DNA of 64,000 nucleotides from Vicinamibacteria bacterium (GTDB lineage: Bacteria > Acidobacteriota > Vicinamibacteria > Vicinamibacterales > JAENWD01): contig CAWDZE010000008.1 in the NCBI GenBank assembly GCA_963806705.1, positions 104,700 to 168,699 on the forward strand, written 5' to 3'. The notes under the pieces were generated by a model. It searched no databases and was not told where the DNA came from. It saw only the letters and a program-made list of their open reading frames with translations. Shown here piece after piece: positions 3 through 46,501 of the stretch (positions are counted from its first letter, which is position 1; the number at the start of each line of letters is the position of its first letter). The position numbers and the translations under genes were made by a program.

Positions 3-2445
3 CTGGACCTCACACTGGGCAGCGGGTGGCCGTACGGCGGGCCCACCGTCGGGATCAAGGACGCGGCCAGCCGTCTGCGCCTCGACAGGATCGTCGTCGG
101 GCCCGGGGCGCCGCGCGTGGCGCGGCCGGCGATGACGGCCGGCGAGACATGGATTGGCGCGTTTGTCGGACCCGACGGCAACACGCCGGTGACCCCGGCG
201 TCGATGCAGCCACTGGCATGGCCCGACGCCGCCGATGCCGTGACGCTTCCCCCTGCGCCGCAGACGCGGCAGGTGTGGTTCTTCATCGCCGGGCGGACCG
301 GAATGCAGGTGAAGCGTCCCTCCATCGGCGCTGAAGGCTACGTCCTGAGCCACTACGACCGCGGGGCGTTGAACCGCTATCTCGAGCAGGTAGGTGCGCG
401 GCTGCTGACGCCGTTTGCCGGACGCCTCCCCTTTGCGATCTTCTGTGACAGCCTGGAAGTGTACGACTCGGACTGGTCGCCGGATCTCGCTTCGGAGTTT
501 AGGGCGCGCCGGGGCTACGACGTCACGCCGCTGCTCCCGCTGCTTGCGGCCGATCGCGGCGTGGAGGGCGCCATGGTCCGCGAAGACTGGGGCCGCACGC
601 TGACGGAGTTGCTCGACGAGCGGTTCATCGCACCGCTTGCCGTATGGGCGCGCGAACGCGGCACGCGGCTGCGCATCCAGGGCTACGGCATCCCACCGGC
701 GACCGTGTCGAGCAATGCCGCGGCCGATTTACCGGAAGGTGAAGGGCACCAGTGGCGCGAGCTCACCGCGTCGCGGTGGGCATCCTCGGCGAGCCACCTG
801 TTCGACAAACCCGTGGCGAGCAGCGAAACGTGGACATGGCTGCACTCGCCGTCGTTTCGCGCGACGCCGCTCGACATCAAGGCCGAAGCCGACCGCCACT
901 TCCTGCAGGGCATCACCCAGCTCATCGGCCATGGGTGGCCTTCGACGCCAGAAGGCGAGGCGTATCCGGGCTGGCGTTTCTACGCTGCCGGGGTTTTCAA
1001 CGATCGCAACCCGTGGTGGATTGCGATGCCGGACATGTCGCGCTACCTGCAACGGGTGAGTGCGGTGCTGCGCCAGGGGCGGCCCGGCAACGACGTCGCG
1101 CTGTACCTGCCGGTGCACGACGGCTACGCGCACGCGGCGGTGGGCCGGATGCACCTGCTCGAGCTGGTGAGAGAGCGGCTGGGGAGGGAAGTCATCGGCT
1201 CGATTCTCGACGCCGGCTACGGCTTCGACCTCGTCGACGACAAGGCACTGGCGCATCACGCCCGCATCGACGGTCAGGCGCTGGCGATCGGCGCGGGCCG
1301 CTATCGCGTGGTCGTCGTGCCGAACGTCGAGGCGATGGCGACCGAGACGCTCGACGTGCTTGCGCGCTTCGTCGACGCCGGCGGGCTCATCATCGCCACG
1401 ACGCACGCTCCCGCGCGCCCGCCCGGCCGCTCGACCGTTGCCGCACGCGACGACTTTGCAGCGCGCGCGAAGGCGCTGTTCACTCGCGCTGATGGCCGCG
1501 CGACGGTGACCTCCGATGCCGGCGCCGCGTTTCGCCGCGCGCTCAACGAGCGCGTGCCGCCTGCGATTCGCATCACGTCCAGGGACCCCGCGGTCGCGGA
1601 CGCTGAAAAGGCTGTTCTGTCCGACATCGGCGTCATCGAGCGGCGGTTCGGCGCGGAGGCGTCGCTCTTCTTCGTCGTCAACACATCGAATGAAGCCAGG
1701 GTGCTGACGATCCGCCTTGGGACGGCAGGGCGACAGGTCGAGTGGTGGAATCCCCTGGTGGACCACAAAGCGACGCTCGTGACCGACGCCGCCGGCACCA
1801 TCACGCTGACGCTGGCGCCCTATCAGTCATGCTTCCTCGTGCGCTCGACCAGCGCGGGACAACCTGATTTGCCATCAACGGCGGACCCGGCGCGCGAGAG
1901 CACGACCGGCACGCGCGTGCTGGGCCCCTGGCAGGTTACTGCCGGCACGGAGGCCTGGACAGCCATGGGCGCGTCGCTCTCGGGCTGGGATCAGCGCGAC
2001 ACCACACGGGTACTTCTCGGGCGTGGCGACCTATGAGACGACGGTGACGCTGAGCGAGGCGGAACTGCAGAACACGCGCGTCTGGCTCGACTTCGGCGAG
2101 GGCACGCGGGTTGCGGAGTACCCGATGCGTAACGGCTTCCGCGCCTGGCTCGATGGGCCCATCCGTGAAGCCGCGTGGGTGGACGTCAACGGCGGCCGCG
2201 TCGTTGGCGCCGTCTGGGCGCCGCCGTACCGCATGGACATCGCGGCCGGCGTCCGCGCCGGAGACAACCGCATTCACGTCCGCGTCGGCAACACCGCGAT
2301 GAACCACATGGCGGGGCAGTCGCTGCCGAACTATCGGCTGCTCAACCTGCGCTACGGCGAGCGGTTCGTGCCGCAGGACATGGATCAGGTGAAGGTGCTG
2401 CCATCGGGACTGACGGCGCCGGTGCGGTTGGTGTTGGGGAACTGA
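3..2445 (+). CDS. Glycoside hydrolase family 106 (alpha-L-rhamnosidase-like); 5'-partial, frameshift near 2020
   Basis: Frame is open from position 3 (LDLTLGSGWPYGGP), with CDSLEVY and ADRHFLQGITQLIGHG motifs. ORF 2023-2445 supplies the C-terminal VWAPPY...VGNTAMN...LPSGLTAPVRL domain typical of GH106. Confidence 0.8.
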
Positions 2446-3599: not shown

Positions 3600-5314
3600 C
3601 GGCCACTCCGGGGCACTTCGATCTCGAGCCGCGAGCCTCGCCCAGGCGCCGAGTCCAGCGTCAGCGTGCCGCCCAGGCCGCGCACGCGCTCCTTGATCAC
3701 CATGGGGCCGCGGCGTTCGGCGTCGAGCTGGTCCAGCGAGTAGCGGCCGTTGAACTCGAAGCCCTTGCCGTCGTCGTCGATCGTGAGCTGCCAGCGCTCG
3801 CCTTGGGCGCCGAATCGAAGCAGCACGTGGCGCGCGCCGCTGTGCTTGCGGATGTTGACCAGCGCCTCCTGCGCGATGCGGAGGATCTCGCGCCCCACGC
3901 GCGGCGCGATCTGCACGTCGTTGAGGTCGCAGACGAAGCGGGCGTCGATGCTGGTGTCGCGCCGAAAGCGATCCGCGGCCGAGGCCAGCTGGCCCGGCAG
4001 ATCGGCCACCCCGAGATCGACGGGCTTGAGCTGCTGCATCAGCTCGCGCGTGTTCAGGGCCGAAGCCCGCAACGTCTCGCGGATAGCCTGCAGCTCGGTG
4101 GCCGTCGCCGGGCTGGTCTTCTCGAGCTCCCGGCGCAGGGTCTCTACGTGCATTTCCAGTCCCACGAGTTGCTGGATCACGCCGTCGTGCAGCTCGCGCG
4201 CCACCCGTGCACGCTCCATCGCGGTCGCACGCGAGCGAAGGCGTCCCAGCAGGTACAAGCTGTAGAGCGCCGGGCCGATCTGCGGCAGCATGCTCGACAG
4301 CCAGCGCTGGCCCCGCTCGTCGGTCGACGAGGACGGATCATAGAGAAAGAGGCGGCCCGCCCACTCGTGAGAGATCTGCCATTCACCAATGAGCGCGCGC
4401 CGTGCGCTGCCAAGCTGCGCGTGGAGTGCGCCGGTCGTCGTGGCGTCGGCGCGGAGCAGCCGGTCCTCGTAGGCGATCTCAAACCGCCCGCGACGGCGCT
4501 GGACGAAACGGACGGCTGACACTCCGGGCAGCGGCGCCCACCAGATGGCGCGTCGGTCCTCGTCGAGCTCGGAGAGGTGCACCTCGGCGTCGCGCGACGG
4601 CAGGTCCCACAGATACATGCGGCCAGACGTCACCTCCTTCACCGCCAGCGCCGCGCGCGTGGCGCCAAACGCGGTGGCCAGTTCCGCCAGGAGCGGCCGC
4701 AGGCTGGCCCGCATCCCGCCGGCCAGGCTGACCGTGGCCAGCACGCGCGCCACGGTGGCCGACTGGCGCCGGGCGTGATGCTGCTCTTCGGCCAGCGCGC
4801 CGATCAGGTAGGCGATGCCCGTGACATAGGCGGCGCTCACGGCTAGAGAACCGCTGGCGGGCCCGCCGGCAAACGGCCCCAGGGGCGGCAGCGCGCCCTC
4901 GACCATCAGCAACGCGCCCGTCACCAGCCCGGTGAGCACGGTCGCTTTCTGGCCCCAGCGAAACCCTGCGGCGATGACCGGATACGCGGACACGACGAAG
5001 AAGAGGGTGGCCGGCCGGTCGCTGAGCGGGGCCACGGCCAGAATCCACGCGACGTCCAGCGCGTGCAGGGCGATGCTCAGCGACCCGATGAATGGCGTGA
5101 GCAGCGCCACCAGGACCGCGGCGGTCAGCGCAAAGATGGTGTACGACCAGATGAGCATCGCGCCCAGGGTGGAGTCGACCCTGGGCGGCTCCGGGTCTGC
5201 CTGGACGAGCAAGATGGCGATGAGGGCCAGCCCGAGCCGCGCCAGAGCCAGGACCCGCTCCAGGCGGACGCGCCGATCGTCGTCGAACGAGGGGTTCAGC
5301 AAGTGACTGGACAC
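3596..5314 (-). CDS. Membrane sensor histidine kinase (HisKA_3 + HATPase)
   Basis: ERARVARELHDGVIQ, QEALVNIRKHSGA, DDDGKGF; N-terminal TM helices; overlaps the regulator start. Confidence 0.95.
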   Translation of the reverse strand: MSSHLLNPSFDDDRRVRLERVLALARLGLALIAILLVQADPEPPRVDSTLGAMLIWSYTIFALTAAVLVALLTPFIGSLSIALHALDVAWILAVAPLSDRPATLFFVVSAYPVIAAGFRWGQKATVLTGLVTGALLMVEGALPPLGPFAGGPASGSLAVSAAYVTGIAYLIGALAEEQHHARRQSATVARVLATVSLAGGMRASLRPLLAELATAFGATRAALAVKEVTSGRMYLWDLPSRDAEVHLSELDEDRRAIWWAPLPGVSAVRFVQRRRGRFEIAYEDRLLRADATTTGALHAQLGSARRALIGEWQISHEWAGRLFLYDPSSSTDERGQRWLSSMLPQIGPALYSLYLLGRLRSRATAMERARVARELHDGVIQQLVGLEMHVETLRRELEKTSPATATELQAIRETLRASALNTRELMQQLKPVDLGVADLPGQLASAADRFRRDTSIDARFVCDLNDVQIAPRVGREILRIAQEALVNIRKHSGARHVLLRFGAQGERWQLTIDDDGKGFEFNGRYSLDQLDAERRGPMVIKERVRGLGGTLTLDSAPGRGSRLEIEVPRSGR

Positions 5315-5444: not shown

Positions 5445-5783
5445 ATGAATCGTGTGGTCGGATTGCTTGCTGCGCTGCTGCTCGTCGGATTCGTTTCTAC
5501 CTCGTCTGCGTCGGACAAGACCAAGAACGCCAAGGGCACCGTCAAGACGGTCGCCGCCGACACCGTCACGGTGACCGACGCCGCCGGCAAGGACTGGACC
5601 TTTGCCGTCGACGCCAAGACCAAGTTGATCGCCAGCGGCGGCTCGCACAAGACCGCCGAGACCAAGAGCATGGGCAAGTCGCCGTTGATCACCGACCTGG
5701 TGAAGGAGGGCACGAAGGTCACCGTCAAGTACCACGAGCTCGAGGGCGGCAAGATGCATGCGGCGGAGGTGCGGGTGCTCTGA
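5445..5783 (+). CDS. Secreted small beta-rich protein (DUF5666/OB-fold-like)
   Basis: AAGGAGG RBS, signal peptide, KGTVKTV...VTVTD...KVTVKY pattern. Confidence 0.75.
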   Translation: MNRVVGLLAALLLVGFVSTSSASDKTKNAKGTVKTVAADTVTVTDAAGKDWTFAVDAKTKLIASGGSHKTAETKSMGKSPLITDLVKEGTKVTVKYHELEGGKMHAAEVRVL

Positions 5784-5841
5784 TCGGCGAAGTCTTTTGC
5801 AGGAGTTGGTCACGCGCCGCGGCGCCTGACCAGCTCCTGTG

Positions 5842-13227: not shown

Positions 13228-13689
13228 CTACTTCACCGTCAGGACGCCCTTCATCCCTGCCACGAAGTGACCCGGGAAGCTGCAAAGGTAGGGATAGCTG
13301 CCTGCCGCGGCCGGCACTTTGAACGTCACCTCCACGGTCTCGCCGGGACCTGCCAGCGTCGTCATCGCCAGGATCTTCGGTTTCATCGCCGCGGGGATGT
13401 AACCGGTGGCGCTTGCGGTCGCCGCTGCGTTGGCAAACGCCGCCGCATCGGTCCCCTTGGCGAGCAACACGAAGTTGTGTCCCATCACGACCTTCGGCAG
13501 CGTGCCGACCGACTTCAGGCGCACCTTGATCGTCTCGCCAGGCTTGGCGCTGATGGCCGTGAGATTGAACTTCATCTGGTCGTTGCCGGTGAGGTCCACG
13601 ACTCGCGGCTTGGCCTGCGCCATCGCGAGCGAGGAGGCGGACCAGAGGGTGACCGTGGCGACCAGTCGGACGAACCAACGATTACGCAT
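13228..13689 (-). CDS. Azurin/auracyanin-like blue copper protein
   Basis: NDQMKF, MGHNFV, YLCSFPGHF..M type-1 Cu ligands; signal peptide. Confidence 0.9.
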   Translation of the reverse strand: MRNRWFVRLVATVTLWSASSLAMAQAKPRVVDLTGNDQMKFNLTAISAKPGETIKVRLKSVGTLPKVVMGHNFVLLAKGTDAAAFANAAATASATGYIPAAMKPKILAMTTLAGPGETVEVTFKVPAAAGSYPYLCSFPGHFVAGMKGVLTVK

Positions 13690-18744: not shown

Positions 18745-18773
18745 TTGACACTCAGCGGATGAAGGCTCAGCAT
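18745..18773 (+). promoter_or_regulatory. Possible sigma70 promoter for the metal operon
   Basis: Perfect TTGACA at 18745, but only a weak -10 (CAGCAT) at 17-bp spacing. Confidence 0.3.
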
Positions 18774-18777
18774 CTAG

Positions 18778-19140
18778 TTGGTGCCCGGTCTCCGAGTGTT
18801 CAGCGCGGGTTTGTTGCTGACGGCCCTGTTCGCCGGCAACGCCGCCGTGTGCGCCGCTGCAGCCCGAACCGCTGACGCGGAGATGGCGTGTTGCAAGGCC
18901 GGCCATCGCACGTGCGGGCGAATGACCAGCGCGAGCGATTGCTGCAAGTCGCGCCAGCAGACCGCCCCTACCAGCCCAGTCGCCAAACAGGTCGATGTCG
19001 CGGTCGTGATTGCTCTCCCGGCCAGCGTCCCGGCGCTGTTCGCGTTGGTCACGGAAAGTCGCCTGGACGTGCCGGCGGACGGCACGTGGAAGCGGCCGCA
19101 CGATCCCCCCCACCTCCACGCATTCTCCATGCTGATCTAG
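18778..19140 (+). CDS. Cys-rich leader protein of the metal operon (DUF2946-like architecture)
   Basis: Signal/TM segment, MACCKAGH..C..DCCK, Pro-rich C-terminus RPHDPPHLH. Confidence 0.65.
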   Translation: MVPGLRVFSAGLLLTALFAGNAAVCAAAARTADAEMACCKAGHRTCGRMTSASDCCKSRQQTAPTSPVAKQVDVAVVIALPASVPALFALVTESRLDVPADGTWKRPHDPPHLHAFSMLI

Positions 19141-19195
19141 CTCCTCGCGGCTCACAACGCAGCGGCCGGTATTCGTCTGCTTCAAGGAGTGCGAG

Positions 19196-19573
19196 ATGCG
19201 GGAACGTGTGTACGCCGCCGCCGGGCTGATGTCAGCTCTGACGACGCTCGTCTGTTGAACGCTGCCGATCTTGTTCGTGAGCCTAGGTCTAGGCTCCGTC
19301 ATTGCGTCGGCACTTAGCGCAGCGCCCTGGATCGCGTCAGTCGGACGCCACAAAAACGGCGTCTTTCTGACCGTCGCGGCGCTGCTCGCCTTTAACTATT
19401 GGATCGCCATTGCGCGCCCTCGCCGCCAGGCGTGTCCACCGGGAGAGGTGTGTCACATCGACAGCCCGGCCATGCGCGTCAATCGCTGGCTGTACTGGGC
19501 GTCGGTGGTGATTTACCTGGTCGCGGTGGTGGTGACGTACGCGGCGCTGTGGTGGGTGGAGAGGCAGTCATGA
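19196..19573 (+). CDS. MerT-like mercury/heavy-metal transporter, predicted selenoprotein (Sec21, TGA 19256-19258)
   Basis: AAGGAG RBS then ATG 19196: MRERVYAAAGLMSALTTLVC-TGA-TLPILFVSLGLG, in frame with ORF 19271-19573. The TGA sits in the MerT CC motif; loop CPPGEVC is retained; 3 TM helices. Confidence 0.8.
19263..19312 (+). promoter_or_regulatory. Candidate bacterial SECIS element (MerT-like gene)
   Basis: Upper stem GAGCCTA/TAGGCTC (19279-19296) with GGTC loop; lower stem TGCCGA/TCGGCA; loop lies 27 nt after UGA; uses rare CTA codons. Confidence 0.7.
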
Positions 19574-20415
19574 ACACGACCGCGGCCTGCCTGGCCGCCG
19601 CGCTTTGCGCCCTTCCCCAGGCGACCCTAGCCTCTGGACATGGGCCGGTCTTCGGAGCCACAACGCCGACGCTTGGCAAAGGGGGATGGAGCGTCGACAC
19701 GGCATGGACGCTGCGCGCCAGTGAGCCTGAGGGCGCAGAGCAGATGCTCAAGAGCATGATCAGTTTCGGCATCACCGAGAACCTGCAGCTCTCGGCATCG
19801 CTGCCCCTCGCAACCACGAGCGGAACACTGCCTGGGGCTCGCATGATGAGCCTGATGTCGAATGAGCGGGAACTCGAGGTGCTGGCCGGCTATCGGTTTC
19901 AACGCCGCGTGGTCGGCATCGGCGGGCGGCAGGAGAGTACCGTCTACGCCGGGTGGACGCTTCCATTTGAATCGACACGGGGAGGCATCCGGGCGTCACC
20001 GTCGCTGTACCTCGGGGCCGCAACCGGTTACGCGTCGCGGTCGCACTATGTCTGGGTGGGAGGCGGCCTGCAGCACTTCACCGAGGACCAGGGCGACCAG
20101 CTGGGGGCCAGCCGCTTCGCCAGCGTCGTCTATGGCTTCCGGCCCAAGCCGTTGCGCGTCGAGGCGCACAAGCCCGATGCGCGGCTGTTTGTCGAGGCGA
20201 CTGCCGAGGATCGGCAGCCGGACAAGGCGGGCGGAGTCCGGCAGGCCACCGCCGCCCGATCCGTGTTTGTTGGACCGACGACGCTGATCCTGTATAAGGC
20301 GTTCGCCTTTGAGGCGGGGGTGCTCTTTCCGGCCTACCAGCGTGTGGACGCGGGACGGAGCAAGGAGCGTCTCCGCGTGGCCGTGAACCTGAGTTATTTC
20401 TTTTGGCTGAAATGA
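19570..20415 (+). CDS. Putative outer-membrane beta-barrel transporter
   Basis: ATGA overlap with the merT-like gene; signal peptide then HGPVFG; alternating aromatic beta strands; ends VNLSYFFWLK. Confidence 0.75.
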   Translation: MNTTAACLAAALCALPQATLASGHGPVFGATTPTLGKGGWSVDTAWTLRASEPEGAEQMLKSMISFGITENLQLSASLPLATTSGTLPGARMMSLMSNERELEVLAGYRFQRRVVGIGGRQESTVYAGWTLPFESTRGGIRASPSLYLGAATGYASRSHYVWVGGGLQHFTEDQGDQLGASRFASVVYGFRPKPLRVEAHKPDARLFVEATAEDRQPDKAGGVRQATAARSVFVGPTTLILYKAFAFEAGVLFPAYQRVDAGRSKERLRVAVNLSYFFWLK

Positions 20416-20425
20416 GAGGTGCGAT

Positions 20426-20926
20426 ATGCGGCGGACCCTTCTGGCGTTGGCGGCAGTCATGCTGGCGGCAACTTCCGTGCGTGCCGAGTTGCGCCACGCT
20501 GAAATCAAGACCCTGGGGATGGATTGAGAAATCTGCGCCCACGCCGTGAGCGTGGCCATGCGGAAGATTCCAGGCGTCAGGGCAGTCCGGGTGAGCCTCA
20601 ACGACGGGTCGACGCTGCTCGACTTGACTCCGAGTAACACCGTGACCCTCGCCCAATTGCGGACCGTTTTGAAGAACAGCGGGTTCGTGTCCAAAGAGGC
20701 GCGGCTTGAAGCGGCCGGGATGGTGACTGCGGACGGTCCGGGACTGTTGTTTACCGTGGCCGGGACTGGGGAGAAGTTCACGCTCTTGCCGGGCCTGACC
20801 ACTCGTGCGGCGTATGAAGGTCTGAAGGGACGCCTGCAGGAGGGGCCTCTTGCGCTGCAGCTCAAGGGGACAGCACGCGCCCCTGACGAGAAGGCGCCAT
20901 CGCTGGTACTCGACGCGGTGCAGTAA
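20426..20926 (+). CDS. Periplasmic HMA (MerP/CopZ-like) protein with C-terminal extra domain, predicted selenoprotein (Sec34, TGA 20525-20527)
   Basis: GAGGT RBS, ATG 20426, signal peptide, then KTLGMD-TGA-EICAHAVSVAMRKIPGVRAVRVSL = GMxCxxC motif as UxxC; in frame with ORF 20546-20926. Confidence 0.82.
20533..20563 (+). promoter_or_regulatory. Candidate bacterial SECIS element (HMA gene)
   Basis: Stem CCACGC/GCGTGG (20539-20555), loop CGTGA with G at position 2, 17 nt after UGA; possible lower stem CTGCG/TGCGG. Confidence 0.55.
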
Positions 20927-21063
20927 CGAAGAAAATTGGAACAACGACGCAACGTGCCGACCTGCGGAGCCAACTGCTGACCTGGCCGGGCGCCTACGCC
21001 AGGGCTACGGTAGACTGCGGTCGTAGGCCAGTGAGCCATTTCCACGGGCAGGCAAGGAGACGC

Positions 21064-21675
21064 ATGCTCAAGCTGCTTGGCATCGTCATACTCCTGGTTG
21101 TCGCGCTTGTGGCGGGCGTGTTCGTCTACGCCAGAAGCACGGGCCTGCGAGCCCGCAGCCAGCCCGGCACACTTGAAACGGTCGTCGCGCGTGCTGTGCG
21201 TGCCGCTGCAATTCCACCCGACGACCGTCAGCGCCGCAATCCGGTGCCCGCATCTGCGGAGGCGGTCACTCACGGGATGGAGCACTTCGCCGATCACTGC
21301 GCGACCTGCCACGCCAACGACGGGAGCGGAAAGACCGATTTCGGACGCGGGCTGTTTCCGAAGCCGCCGGATTTGCGCGCGGCTGCCACGCAGGGCCTGA
21401 CCGACGGCGAGTTGTGCTACATCATTGAAAACGGCGTCCGGTTCACCGGTATGCCCGCATTCGGATCGGCCGACGCCGCGGGAGCCCCAGATACGTGGCA
21501 TCTGGTCCACTTCATTCGCGAACTTCCGCGGCTCACGCCCGAGCAGATCAAGCAAATGGAAGCGCTGAATCCGAAGGCACCCGACGAGATTCGGCGGCAG
21601 ATCGCCGAAGAAGAGCGGCGGAATGGACGTAGTCGACAGCCCCAGCCCCCTCCGTCAAAGCCGCACCATCATTGA
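21064..21675 (+). CDS. Membrane-anchored monoheme cytochrome c
   Basis: HCATCH, PKPPDL, GVRFTGMPAFG, WHLVHFIREL; AAGGAG RBS; His-rich tail. Confidence 0.92.
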   Translation: MLKLLGIVILLVVALVAGVFVYARSTGLRARSQPGTLETVVARAVRAAAIPPDDRQRRNPVPASAEAVTHGMEHFADHCATCHANDGSGKTDFGRGLFPKPPDLRAAATQGLTDGELCYIIENGVRFTGMPAFGSADAAGAPDTWHLVHFIRELPRLTPEQIKQMEALNPKAPDEIRRQIAEEERRNGRSRQPQPPPSKPHHH

Positions 21676-25378: not shown

Positions 25379-25503
25379 GCCGCACCGACGCCACGCAGGT
25401 AGTACGGATGAAAGCCGGCCACGGTCAACGCAAGCATCACGAGCGCGGCGGAAGTGTGAAGGAATCGCCGCACGGTGACGCCGCCGGCGCCAGGCGAGAC
25501 ACG
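25379..25503 (-). pseudogene. Internally deleted partial copy of the membrane-protein gene 45698-46501
   Basis: Near-identical to 46323-46438, fused to 46108-46123 at an ACGCCAC microhomology. Confidence 0.8.
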
Positions 25504-25641
25504 GGGCAGGGCCTCGGAATGCACGGCCTATGGTGGATCGAAGACGCTCGGCGCACCAACCCCAGCACGCCTGCGCGGGTCAAGGAGCCCTGACAGATCT
25601 GCGCGGGCGTCTGTGCGCGAGCAGTGATACATTTCGCCGCT

Positions 25642-45607: not shown

Positions 45608-45697
45608 GGCGCCGGGCACACCCCAACCGGCGAAGCCTCGAGGGGACCTGACCGTCTCTTGAGACCCGACTAGATGGTCGAAGTGGCTGCCGCCTGA

Positions 45698-46501
45698 CTA
45701 CAAGCCGAACCCCCCCTGCAGCACGCCGTTCCACCAACCGCTGACCGCCAGCGTGCCCGCGCTCGCATACACGGCAACGAGCGCGACGTAGCCGCCAGTC
45801 AACCAGATGTCGAGTCGCGCGTTCACCCACGTGCGCGCCGCGACGAGGATCAACCCCAGCGCGAAGATCGGTCCGAAGATCCCTGGCCATCCCGTCTGGC
45901 CGAACACGGGATAGAAGACCGGCATCCGCACCGTCGCGCCCGCCAGAATGCTGAGGCTTGCGAGCAGCATCATCGCGCGATGCCGCTCGGGCCGCCGGCG
46001 CCAGAGCAGCCCGGCGCCAAGCAGCGTGGTGAACGCCGCCATCTCGGCGAACATCACCAGCAGAAACTCCTTGTACGCCATGCCCCAGAACTGGAACACA
46101 GGCGTCAGCCGCACCGACGCCACCGCCAGCAGCGTGCCGCTGACGGCCACCCCGAGCCCCACCGCTGCCACGCCCCAGCCAAGCCGCATATGCACGCGCC
46201 GTCGTCCGGTCGGCACGAGCGTCGCCTGCACGAAGAAGAGCACGAACCACGCCGTCGCGAGCCCGCCGTGGATGGCCACAAGCGTCAGCACCCCGGGCGC
46301 AATCAGTCGCTCGCCCTGGCCCACGCCACGCAGGTAGTACGGATGAAAGCCAGCCACGGTCAACGCAAGCATCACGAGCGCGGCAGTGGTGTGAAGGTAC
46401 CGGCGCACGGTGACGACGCCGGCGCCAGGCGAGACACGATGAACGACTCCGGTTGACAATGCAGGACCCCTGGTTGAATGACCGGAATCAACGAGAGGCA
46501 A
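45698..46501 (-). CDS. Hypothetical integral membrane protein (6-7 TM, His-containing)
   Basis: GFHPYY, IHGGLATAW..VQATL..VHMRLG, HRAMMLLAS. Confidence 0.8.
   Translation of the reverse strand: MPLVDSGHSTRGPALSTGVVHRVSPGAGVVTVRRYLHTTAALVMLALTVAGFHPYYLRGVGQGERLIAPGVLTLVAIHGGLATAWFVLFFVQATLVPTGRRRVHMRLGWGVAAVGLGVAVSGTLLAVASVRLTPVFQFWGMAYKEFLLVMFAEMAAFTTLLGAGLLWRRRPERHRAMMLLASLSILAGATVRMPVFYPVFGQTGWPGIFGPIFALGLILVAARTWVNARLDIWLTGGYVALVAVYASAGTLAVSGWWNGVLQGGFGL

Follow-up and report, generated by a model that had tools for sequence, protein, structure and literature searches.

An overlooked selenoprotein cassette with a probable role in mer/cop-type metal handling in a Vicinamibacteria genome and its relatives

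Contig CAWDZE010000008.1 of the assembly GCA_963806705.1 (Vicinamibacteria bacterium) was analyzed over a stretch of 64,000 nucleotides, here called the window, whose numbering is used throughout. The source genome (G000, completeness 97.8%) has its closest named relatives in the Vicinamibacteria, Acidobacteriota. Five co-directional open reading frames (ORFs) were found, which encode a leader peptide, a MerT-like protein, an outer-membrane beta-barrel, a protein with an HMA domain, and a cytochrome c (Table 1). As judged from sequence conservation, the conserved unit is a four-gene cassette (18778–20926) of leader, MerT-like gene, barrel and HMA gene, with the cytochrome c gene outside. It is a real selenoprotein cassette that has been overlooked, probably for metal handling of the mer/cop type, and the genes for the MerT-like and the HMA protein are both predicted to be read through a TGA.

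Both in-frame TGAs almost certainly encode selenocysteine (Sec), as indicated by the comparison of related loci. In a first set of relatives (49 metagenome loci, three same-genus regions, and one region of the own genome), 44 of the 45 readable MerT columns and 26 of the 27 HMA columns had TGA; one distant locus, with cysteine at both, was the exception. Among 129 loci examined, the MerT column could be read in 95 (64 TGA, 31 cysteine codons TGY) and the HMA column in 100 (89 TGA, 11 cysteine codons TGC). The hairpins 3' of the TGAs, which resemble Sec insertion sequences (SECIS), followed the TGA and not the cysteine codons. The merT hairpin was intact in all 54 distinct TGA alleles versus one of 30 cysteine alleles, and the HMA hairpin in all 83 distinct TGA alleles versus one of 11. 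The stem positions were defined on the TGA alleles; the weight lies on the contrast between TGA and cysteine alleles and on covariation. One pair of the merT stem changed from G–C to C–G in 15 alleles, and in the HMA stem G–C was replaced by A–U in four alleles and C–G by U–A in four. The codons CTA and GGT within the merT stem were fixed in 53 of 54 alleles, although their genome-wide use is 0.8% and 7.3%, respectively. The window hairpins alone folded no better than shuffled sequences (z −0.2 to −1.5). Single-sequence folding was rejected as SECIS evidence on this account, and the significance of the hairpins rests on the comparison across relatives.

The genes selA, selB, selC (tRNA-Sec), and selD were all detected above cut-off in the source genome, and selD itself carries one TGA. 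Contigs (not raw reads) from independent public runs cover the first TGA (X1, X3, and X4) and the second (X1 record 6), both unchanged. An assembly error is unlikely because these contigs and the relatives carry the same TGAs. A scan of 301 genomes sampled from the class with the HMA profile gave 12 matches. Ten were strong matches with one TGA each; the two without TGA (G201, G225) belong to a distant HMA family, and no barrel was found in the regions examined. The co-occurrence of selA did not discriminate: the gene was found in 66 of 76 carrier genomes, but 54 of 61 relatives had it too, irrespective of the cassette. The possibility that the TGAs are true stops, in pseudogenes, through assembly errors or under another code, has next to no probability. 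It could draw on the non-significant folding of the window hairpins and on the ten carrier genomes in which selA was not found (these assemblies are incomplete), but TGA is fixed at the cysteine column across several phyla, the frames are conserved past it, the hairpins are linked to the TGA alleles, and the independent contigs agree. Moreover, the merT gene, the barrel gene, and the cytochrome gene all end with TGA as an ordinary stop codon. An earlier sequence-only reading had placed both TGAs at conserved metal-binding cysteines, each followed by a hairpin. The column counts, the four sel genes, and the contigs of the independent runs agree with the Sec assignment; the hairpins exist and are tied to TGA alleles, but in the window alone they did not stand out from shuffles.

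Table 1. Features of the cassette and its surroundings (window numbering).
Feature	Position	Strand	Basis
Putative −35 box TTGACA	18745..18750	+	Same position in the window and in 7/7 close relatives inspected
Leader gene, 120 amino acids	18778..19140	+	Sequence; alignment of 41 rows
Intergenic hairpin joining the ribosome-binding site of merT to bases 3' of the leader stop	19138..19198	+	Pairing versus shuffles, 40 regions
Sec-MerT-like inner-membrane protein, 125 amino acids	19196..19573	+	Pfam MerT similarity, hydropathy, column counts
In-frame TGA of merT (U21)	19256..19258	+	Single in-frame TGA; L-V-C20-U21-T-L-P
SECIS-type stem-loop of merT, 7 pairs, GGUC loop	19279..19296	+	Allele comparison
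Outer-membrane beta-barrel, 281 amino acids, COG4313/FapF-like fold	19570..20415	+	AlphaFold2 and Foldseek
Sec-HMA protein, 166 amino acids	20426..20926	+	Pfam HMA, model
In-frame TGA of the HMA gene (U34)	20525..20527	+	Single in-frame TGA; G-M-D-U34-E-I-C37
SECIS-type stem-loop of the HMA gene, 6 pairs, 5-nucleotide loop	20539..20555	+	Allele comparison
Membrane-anchored monohaem cytochrome c, neighbor only	21064..21675	+	Pfam PF13442/PF00034

The MerT-like read-through product matched Pfam MerT (PF02411) with an E-value of 3.4e-7 and 30.7 bits, below the gathering score of 32.9, and reached 31.3 bits against NF010314 (cut-off 150). Hydropathy and column counts indicate three hydrophobic segments, with C20-U21 in the first and a loop pair C80/C86. 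In an alignment that takes in canonical MerTs, C20 was conserved in 97 of 97 sequences, cysteine or TGA occupied column 21 in 98 of 98, and C80 and C86 were present in 102 of 102 and 69 of 88, respectively. By sequence, the protein is MerT-like, not an equivalog of MerT, and is predicted to work like MerT. Another small membrane gene, which is divergent and carries a C-U motif (RPC-U-ALP or PWC-U-V), was observed in the loci L146 (~5500–5800), L152 (~5450–5750), L159 (~5460–5760), L143 (~5450–5750), and L124 (~3790–4070). In L146, L152, and L159, it is accompanied by a hairpin with a GGUC loop; C-C versions were seen in L142, L145, L149, and L155. These divergent genes are found in some of the loci that carry only the HMA gene or cysteine forms. 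In addition, a MerP-like protein with the motif GMT-U-AGC is encoded in an operon led by merR and merT (L156, ~841–1269, minus strand).

The read-through product of the HMA gene scored 25.2 bits against Pfam HMA (PF00403), above the cut-off of 24.8. It consists of a signal-peptide-like N-terminus, which is also present in the 87 relatives listed, an HMA domain with the motif GMD-U-EI-C, and a C-terminal beta-rich domain. In the structural model (predicted local distance difference test, pLDDT, 93), the HMA domain adopts a ferredoxin-like fold that overlays CopZ and MerP at 1.2–1.6 Å over ~67 residues; Atx1 structures also match. No Foldseek match was obtained for the C-terminal domain among the matches listed. 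The exported protein reached no NCBIfam cut-off, and its score against the MerP family TIGR02052 was 26.5 bits (cut-off 92.55). Elsewhere in the source genome, a 57-codon stretch (G000:C3:332383–332553) is 63% identical to this C-terminal domain and looks like a remnant.

The barrel has an N-terminal GHGPVFG segment, a Met-rich loop, and a cysteine-free mature part. Its AlphaFold2 model (pLDDT 92) gave FapF and Pput2725, a COG4313 channel, as best Foldseek matches (TM 0.60–0.65, E 3e-8 to 1e-7), in line with the Atlas lead PF13557. There was no Pfam match, no PDB sequence match with a 138-row profile, and no match in the plasmid collection; the sequence identity to the COG4313, Phenol_MetA_deg, and FapF barrels is 11–13%. 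H24 in the N-terminal segment is conserved in 127 of 128 sequences and M96 in the Met-rich loop in 129 of 133, whereas no cysteine is conserved. The known COG4313/FapF barrels described in the available text of PMC4493636 take up hydrophobic compounds or export amyloid, in contrast to the conserved histidine and methionine and the metal context found here. The layout of an outer-membrane channel, a periplasmic Sec chaperone, and an inner-membrane Sec transporter, which the sequence-only reading had proposed, is supported.

The same reading had described five tightly coupled genes. The five ORFs are present and four of them form a unit, but the cytochrome c gene starts 137 nucleotides downstream and is not syntenic, and its place in the module was dropped. 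It was found in none of the 53 first-set loci and in two of 132 related loci, in both cases upstream of the cassette, with at least 900 nucleotides of downstream sequence present in 83 of the 103 HMA-bearing loci. A gene of the azurin/plastocyanin family 5 kb upstream (13228–13689, minus strand) was likewise rejected as a client (no synteny, 0 of 132 loci). DNA similarity to close relatives covers ~18.8–20.9 kb and stops at 20704–20927, at or before the HMA stop, and the flanks vary even inside the genus. A promoter scan of the region upstream of the leader gave no site above its thresholds, the −10 match being weak, and a terminator scan yielded nothing informative at the cassette. Two other parts of the window (25385–25558 and 45696–46438) both match one cassette-adjoining region of the relative L083 with 94–95% identity, which suggests a partial duplicate and a local rearrangement.

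Barrel and HMA gene make up the conserved core, which was found in Acidobacteriota, Gemmatimonadota, and others; the MerT-like gene is variable and occurs with Sec, with cysteine, or not at all. Of 80 barrel-bearing genome loci, 24 combine Sec-MerT with Sec-HMA, 30 Cys-MerT with Sec-HMA, 13 have Sec-HMA only, 11 Cys-HMA only, and two were not read. A quick barrel tree (65 of the 80 barrels, midpoint root, for descriptive use) placed the main Sec-MerT form in one acidobacterial clade (Shimodaira–Hasegawa-like approximate likelihood ratio test 99) and Cys-HMA forms nested inside Sec clades, which is consistent with reversion from Sec. In nine of the Cys-HMA loci with a barrel but no MerT (L098–L115), the pair is oriented divergently to an adjoining conserved block that encodes an FAD oxidase, VTC, DUF4956, CotH, and DUF7790. 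This distribution bears on an outward or purely periplasmic role, in which the Sec-HMA protein buffers periplasmic metal, the barrel releases it, and MerT is an optional add-on. Such a role would agree with the 24 loci in which barrel and HMA occur without a MerT of the main family and with neighbors of the efflux type, but 54 of the 80 loci do combine a MerT-like gene with barrel and HMA, and a passive barrel would lack an energy source for export; we consider it improbable.

The leader has a hydrophobic N-terminal segment according to hydropathy, a CC-x6-C-x8-CC motif, and a C-terminal KRPHDPPHLH...LI stretch with hardly any variation in the close group; the alignment comprised the window and 40 relatives. 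It matched no Pfam or NCBIfam family. Atlas leads pointed to DUF8199, DUF6769, and DUF2946; an assignment to DUF2946 (PF11162) was rejected, because there was no Pfam match at E 0.1, the CxxC and RAPP motifs are absent, and only the Atlas lead (0.93, 23% share) remained. The length, PP, and spacing filters for CutF-like genes in PMC9973294 are fewer than 150 amino acids, PP within the last 15 residues, and a next gene on the same strand within 1000 nucleotides; the leader agrees with these three, having 120 amino acids, PP at −11/−10, and a spacer of 55 nucleotides to merT. In 28 of 40 distinct regions, the bases 3' of the leader paired with the ribosome-binding site of merT above the mean of shuffled sequences, and in 31 of 40 the cognate duplex surpassed the average non-cognate one; these regions are related sequences and not independent. 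The hairpin hiding the ribosome-binding site is absent in a subgroup with long spacers.

From these sequence features and by analogy, the leader is most likely a CutF-like metal-sensing upstream ORF and translational regulator. As far as the two systems are described in the available texts, it shares with CutF of Rhodobacter and CruR of Bordetella the position as a short first gene, a putative export-type N-terminus, a cysteine cluster, a C-terminal PP, a short spacer, and an RBS-hiding hairpin (RBS, ribosome-binding site). It differs in having CC-x6-C-x8-CC and HDPP instead of CxxC/CxxxC and PPP/RAPP, in lacking a DUF2946 Pfam match, and in preceding a selenoprotein gene. According to the same descriptions, CutF activates and CruR represses on copper (PMC9973294, PMC9426467, 10.1101/2025.02.05.636593). 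None of the seven MerR_1 matches in the source genome lies on contig C8, and no adjacent three-cysteine MerR was thus detected; the lack of a MerR beside the cassette would be explained if the leader were a CutF-like regulator. In L149 and L152, CusA/CzcA efflux genes are likewise preceded by members of the leader family.

In leaderless loci, other regulators were found in the leader's place. A MerR-family gene is located directly upstream in 22 of them, and a CsoR-family gene heads barrel and Sec-HMA in one locus (L172:1038–8095), where a zf_CopZ gene was also observed next to the cassette and selB 3.5 kb away. Nine of the 22 MerRs are without the equivalent of Cys82, whose absence marks monovalent-metal sensors; ten have it together with a different C-terminal cysteine pattern, and three are of the mercury type. 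This 9/13 split was read by hand; an automated tally, which overlooked short loci, gave six MerRs without the Cys82-equivalent and 13 with it. Among 92 annotated loci, CusA/CzcA was the best match of eight of ten scanned genes for pumps of the resistance–nodulation–division type. CusA/CzcA-type pumps flank eight loci and copper-resistance multicopper oxidases above cut-off three, and three of the six scanned reductases near loci are MerA. Beside two double-Sec cassettes, a thioredoxin-like gene with TGA read-through and the motif PAPT-U-RLYPGG was noted (L067:4584–4880 and L093:7315–7551, both on the minus strand). It is possibly a third selenoprotein, and its cysteine relatives occur in mer operons.

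The relation to mercury resistance was considered separately. The mer uptake chain of the Tn21/Tn501 type likewise combines an exported HMA protein (MerP) with a small three-helix membrane protein (MerT), and both MerTs have a cysteine pair, or its C-U counterpart, in the first helix and a loop cysteine pair. Unlike the mer chain, the cassette has Sec in both partners, an extra beta domain on the HMA protein, and a dedicated barrel; its Sec-MerT form has neither MerA nor MerR, and its proteins fall far below the MerT and MerP cut-offs given above. No MerA above cut-off was found in the source genome (best score 329.7 versus 454.45 bits, the top matches being without the C-terminal CC), in agreement with the earlier statement that this is not a classical mer operon. 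MerA above cut-off was present in none of 23 Sec-MerT genomes versus 14 of 27 Cys-MerT genomes, a comparison of incomplete assemblies with 25 candidates scored each and confounded with phylum. Mercury reduction of the mer type is unlikely, given that MerA did not pass the cut-off in any of the 23 Sec-MerT genomes.

A related possibility is that the cassette is an accessory for scavenging mercury or organomercurials, in which a MerP/MerT-like chain, served by an outer-membrane channel of its own, feeds MerA where present and otherwise acts as a selenium-based sink. The affinity of selenolates for Hg is very high, and the MerT architecture and the MerA genes of the Cys-MerT genomes fit such a role. 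The cassette also adjoins merR-merT-merP-merA in L128, L131, L133, and L141 and stands behind a mercury-type MerR in L126. As far as the available texts of these sources go, COG4313 channels suit hydrophobic solutes (PMC4493636), and CU motifs have been linked to heavy-metal contact (Haft, 10.1101/2022.07.06.499078). Nevertheless, we regard the accessory role as unlikely, given that no MerA above cut-off was found in G000 or the 23 Sec-MerT genomes, that cassettes beside a mer operon usually have their own regulator, often without the Cys82-equivalent, and that the barrel is free of cysteine. Moreover, Hg import without MerA is harmful.

The cassette probably serves the trafficking of soft metals in one form or another; metal handling is indicated because both cysteine pairs of MerT are conserved and because of the HMA fold. 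Induction by metal is suggested since MerR (22 loci) or CsoR (one locus) stands upstream where the leader is absent, and since leader-family genes precede CusA/CzcA in two loci and the leader fits the CutF-like filters. The more specific view that the cassette is a metal-induced chain, which captures soft metal ions and moves them inward, with Cu(I)/Ag(I) favored over Hg(II), has about even chances. The lean toward Cu/Ag is slight; it arises because the barrel ligands are histidine and methionine and not cysteine, because nine of the 22 MerRs are without the Cys82-equivalent, and because of the flanking copper-resistance oxidases and CusA/CzcA-type pumps. Recoding signals, Sec machinery, gene order, folds, and regulator exchanges were read from sequence comparison, and the function of the leader, the metal, the direction of transport, and the hand-over are what we infer.

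In such an inward chain, the nascent leader would be exported and its cysteine clusters would bind metal, whereupon the Pro-containing C-terminus would alter the opening of the hairpin over the merT ribosome-binding site, as in CutF. The ion would then enter through the barrel along histidine and methionine ligands, be bound by U-xx-C of the periplasmic HMA protein, and pass from there to the MerT-like protein, first to its C-U pair and then to its cytoplasmic cysteine pair. The likely purpose would be to clear or meter periplasmic metal and to feed cytoplasmic sensing and handling systems, not mercury reduction. Selenium might provide tighter binding at trace concentrations, and Sec on both partners would keep the hand-over possible.

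Several observations speak against this inward, metal-induced chain. The main-family MerT is absent in 24 of 80 loci, at least two of which have another CU membrane gene, so that inward transport is not obligatory. COG4313 channels are described in the available text of PMC4493636 as carriers of hydrophobic molecules. Twelve Sec-MerT sites are without a leader, and five leaderless loci (L040, L042, L044, L063, and L093) have a −10-like TAnnnT box right before the Sec-MerT start. The box, so close to the start and without a leader gene, suggests leaderless transcripts, and expression at these five sites may be constitutive. Since PP of the leader lies 11 codons before the stop, the sign of control is not readable from sequence. 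With respect to the metal, the Cys82-equivalent of the divalent type is kept in 13 of 22 MerRs, three of them of the mercury type, and none of 21 MerRs scanned reached the curated CueR, MerR, ZntR, or CadR cut-off. CusA/CzcA does not separate Cu/Ag from Zn/Cd, one neighboring ATPase is of the Zn/Cd type, and MerA, present in 14 of the 27 Cys-MerT genomes, lies within 6 kb in at least three loci.

The same chain of channel, chaperone, and permease could alternatively serve nutritional high-affinity copper uptake for cuproproteins that is shut off by copper, as in CruR-bfrG. The His/Met barrel agrees with this, MerA would not be needed, and the hairpin would stay closed if translation stalled 11 codons short of the stop; CruR, a leader of similar build, represses a Cu importer according to the available text of PMC9426467. 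However, the neighbors are resistance genes, no cuproenzyme or partner of the PCuAC/Sco type recurs among them, and only ~10 of the 301 class genomes carry the cassette HMA. Furthermore, regulators that act on metal excess (MerR activators, a CsoR repressor) stand at the head of many copies. Copper nutrition is therefore distinctly unlikely. Even less probable, and by far, is a redox relay in which U-xx-C and C-U would carry electrons, and not metal, across the inner membrane. Most selenoproteins are redox enzymes, as stated in the available text of PMC13188914, and the thioredoxin-like gene with TGA read-through flanks two cassettes, but the HMA and MerT folds, the metal-sensing regulators, and the metal-resistance neighbors point elsewhere, the cytochrome c gene is unlinked, and the barrel would be without a role.

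Parts of the system have known counterparts. A small group of CU-motif MerT selenoproteins, for example WP_250634603.1, is mentioned by Haft (10.1101/2022.07.06.499078). The cassette MerT shares the family and the C-U motif and may belong to this group, whose operon, host range, and partner are not given in the preprint text. The same preprint covers the SAO system of Clostridioides difficile, in which several CU-motif selenoproteins are likewise encoded in one transport operon. As far as its text describes, SAO is of the ABC type and includes a MerB-like lyase, and its hosts are anaerobes, most of which lack an outer membrane; no proteins common to the cassette were seen there. NCBIfam contains NF045683 (MerT/CopZ fusion-like selenoprotein) and NF041115 (UxxU metal-binding selenoprotein), which also have Sec in MerT-like or HMA-type domains. 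The cassette differs from the former in having separate genes and not a fusion (23.8 versus a cut-off of 375) and from the latter in having an exported HMA protein with U-xx-C and not UxxU (26.1 versus 95). Table 1 of a 2026 inventory of 119 families (PMC13188914) includes a C/SxxU MerT, a UxxC P-type ATPase, and a UxxU metal-binding family, and an exported stand-alone UxxC HMA protein is absent from the families in that table. In the literature search, whose coverage excluded most subscription papers and the Haft supplements, no description of the cassette or of the exported Sec-HMA family was found.

The window HMA protein is stored in the database as a fragment of 122 amino acids, and all 120 MerT entries among the matches listed comprise the part after the TGA only. 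The system is invisible in standard annotation because the database entries are shortened at the TGA. Two further suggestions of the sequence-only reading hold accordingly: gene callers shorten both Sec genes, and Sec-containing MerT-like proteins had been known before, as the CU-motif MerTs mentioned in the preprint and the MerT/CopZ fusion family demonstrate.

Sec in bacteria is mostly taken as a redox residue; here, it occupies metal-binding positions in two proteins that belong to a single proposed transport chain. The natural Sec/Sec, Cys/Sec, and Cys-only versions provide a ready comparison for the contribution of selenium to metal binding and hand-over, and the cassette points to a possible metal role for the COG4313-fold channel and to a new CutF-like type of leader. 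Tentatively, and with less confidence than the inward chain itself, the cassette might represent an uncatalogued and complete envelope-spanning Sec-relay pathway for metals, which would lead from a His/Met channel of the COG4313 type via a new family of exported U-xx-C metallochaperones to C-U permeases and would be gated by a metal-sensing nascent peptide. If this is true, widespread Acidobacteriota and Gemmatimonadota would have a reductase-free route for traces of Cu(I), Ag(I), or Hg(II) that depends on selenium and would couple the selenium supply of these bacteria to their handling of soft metals.

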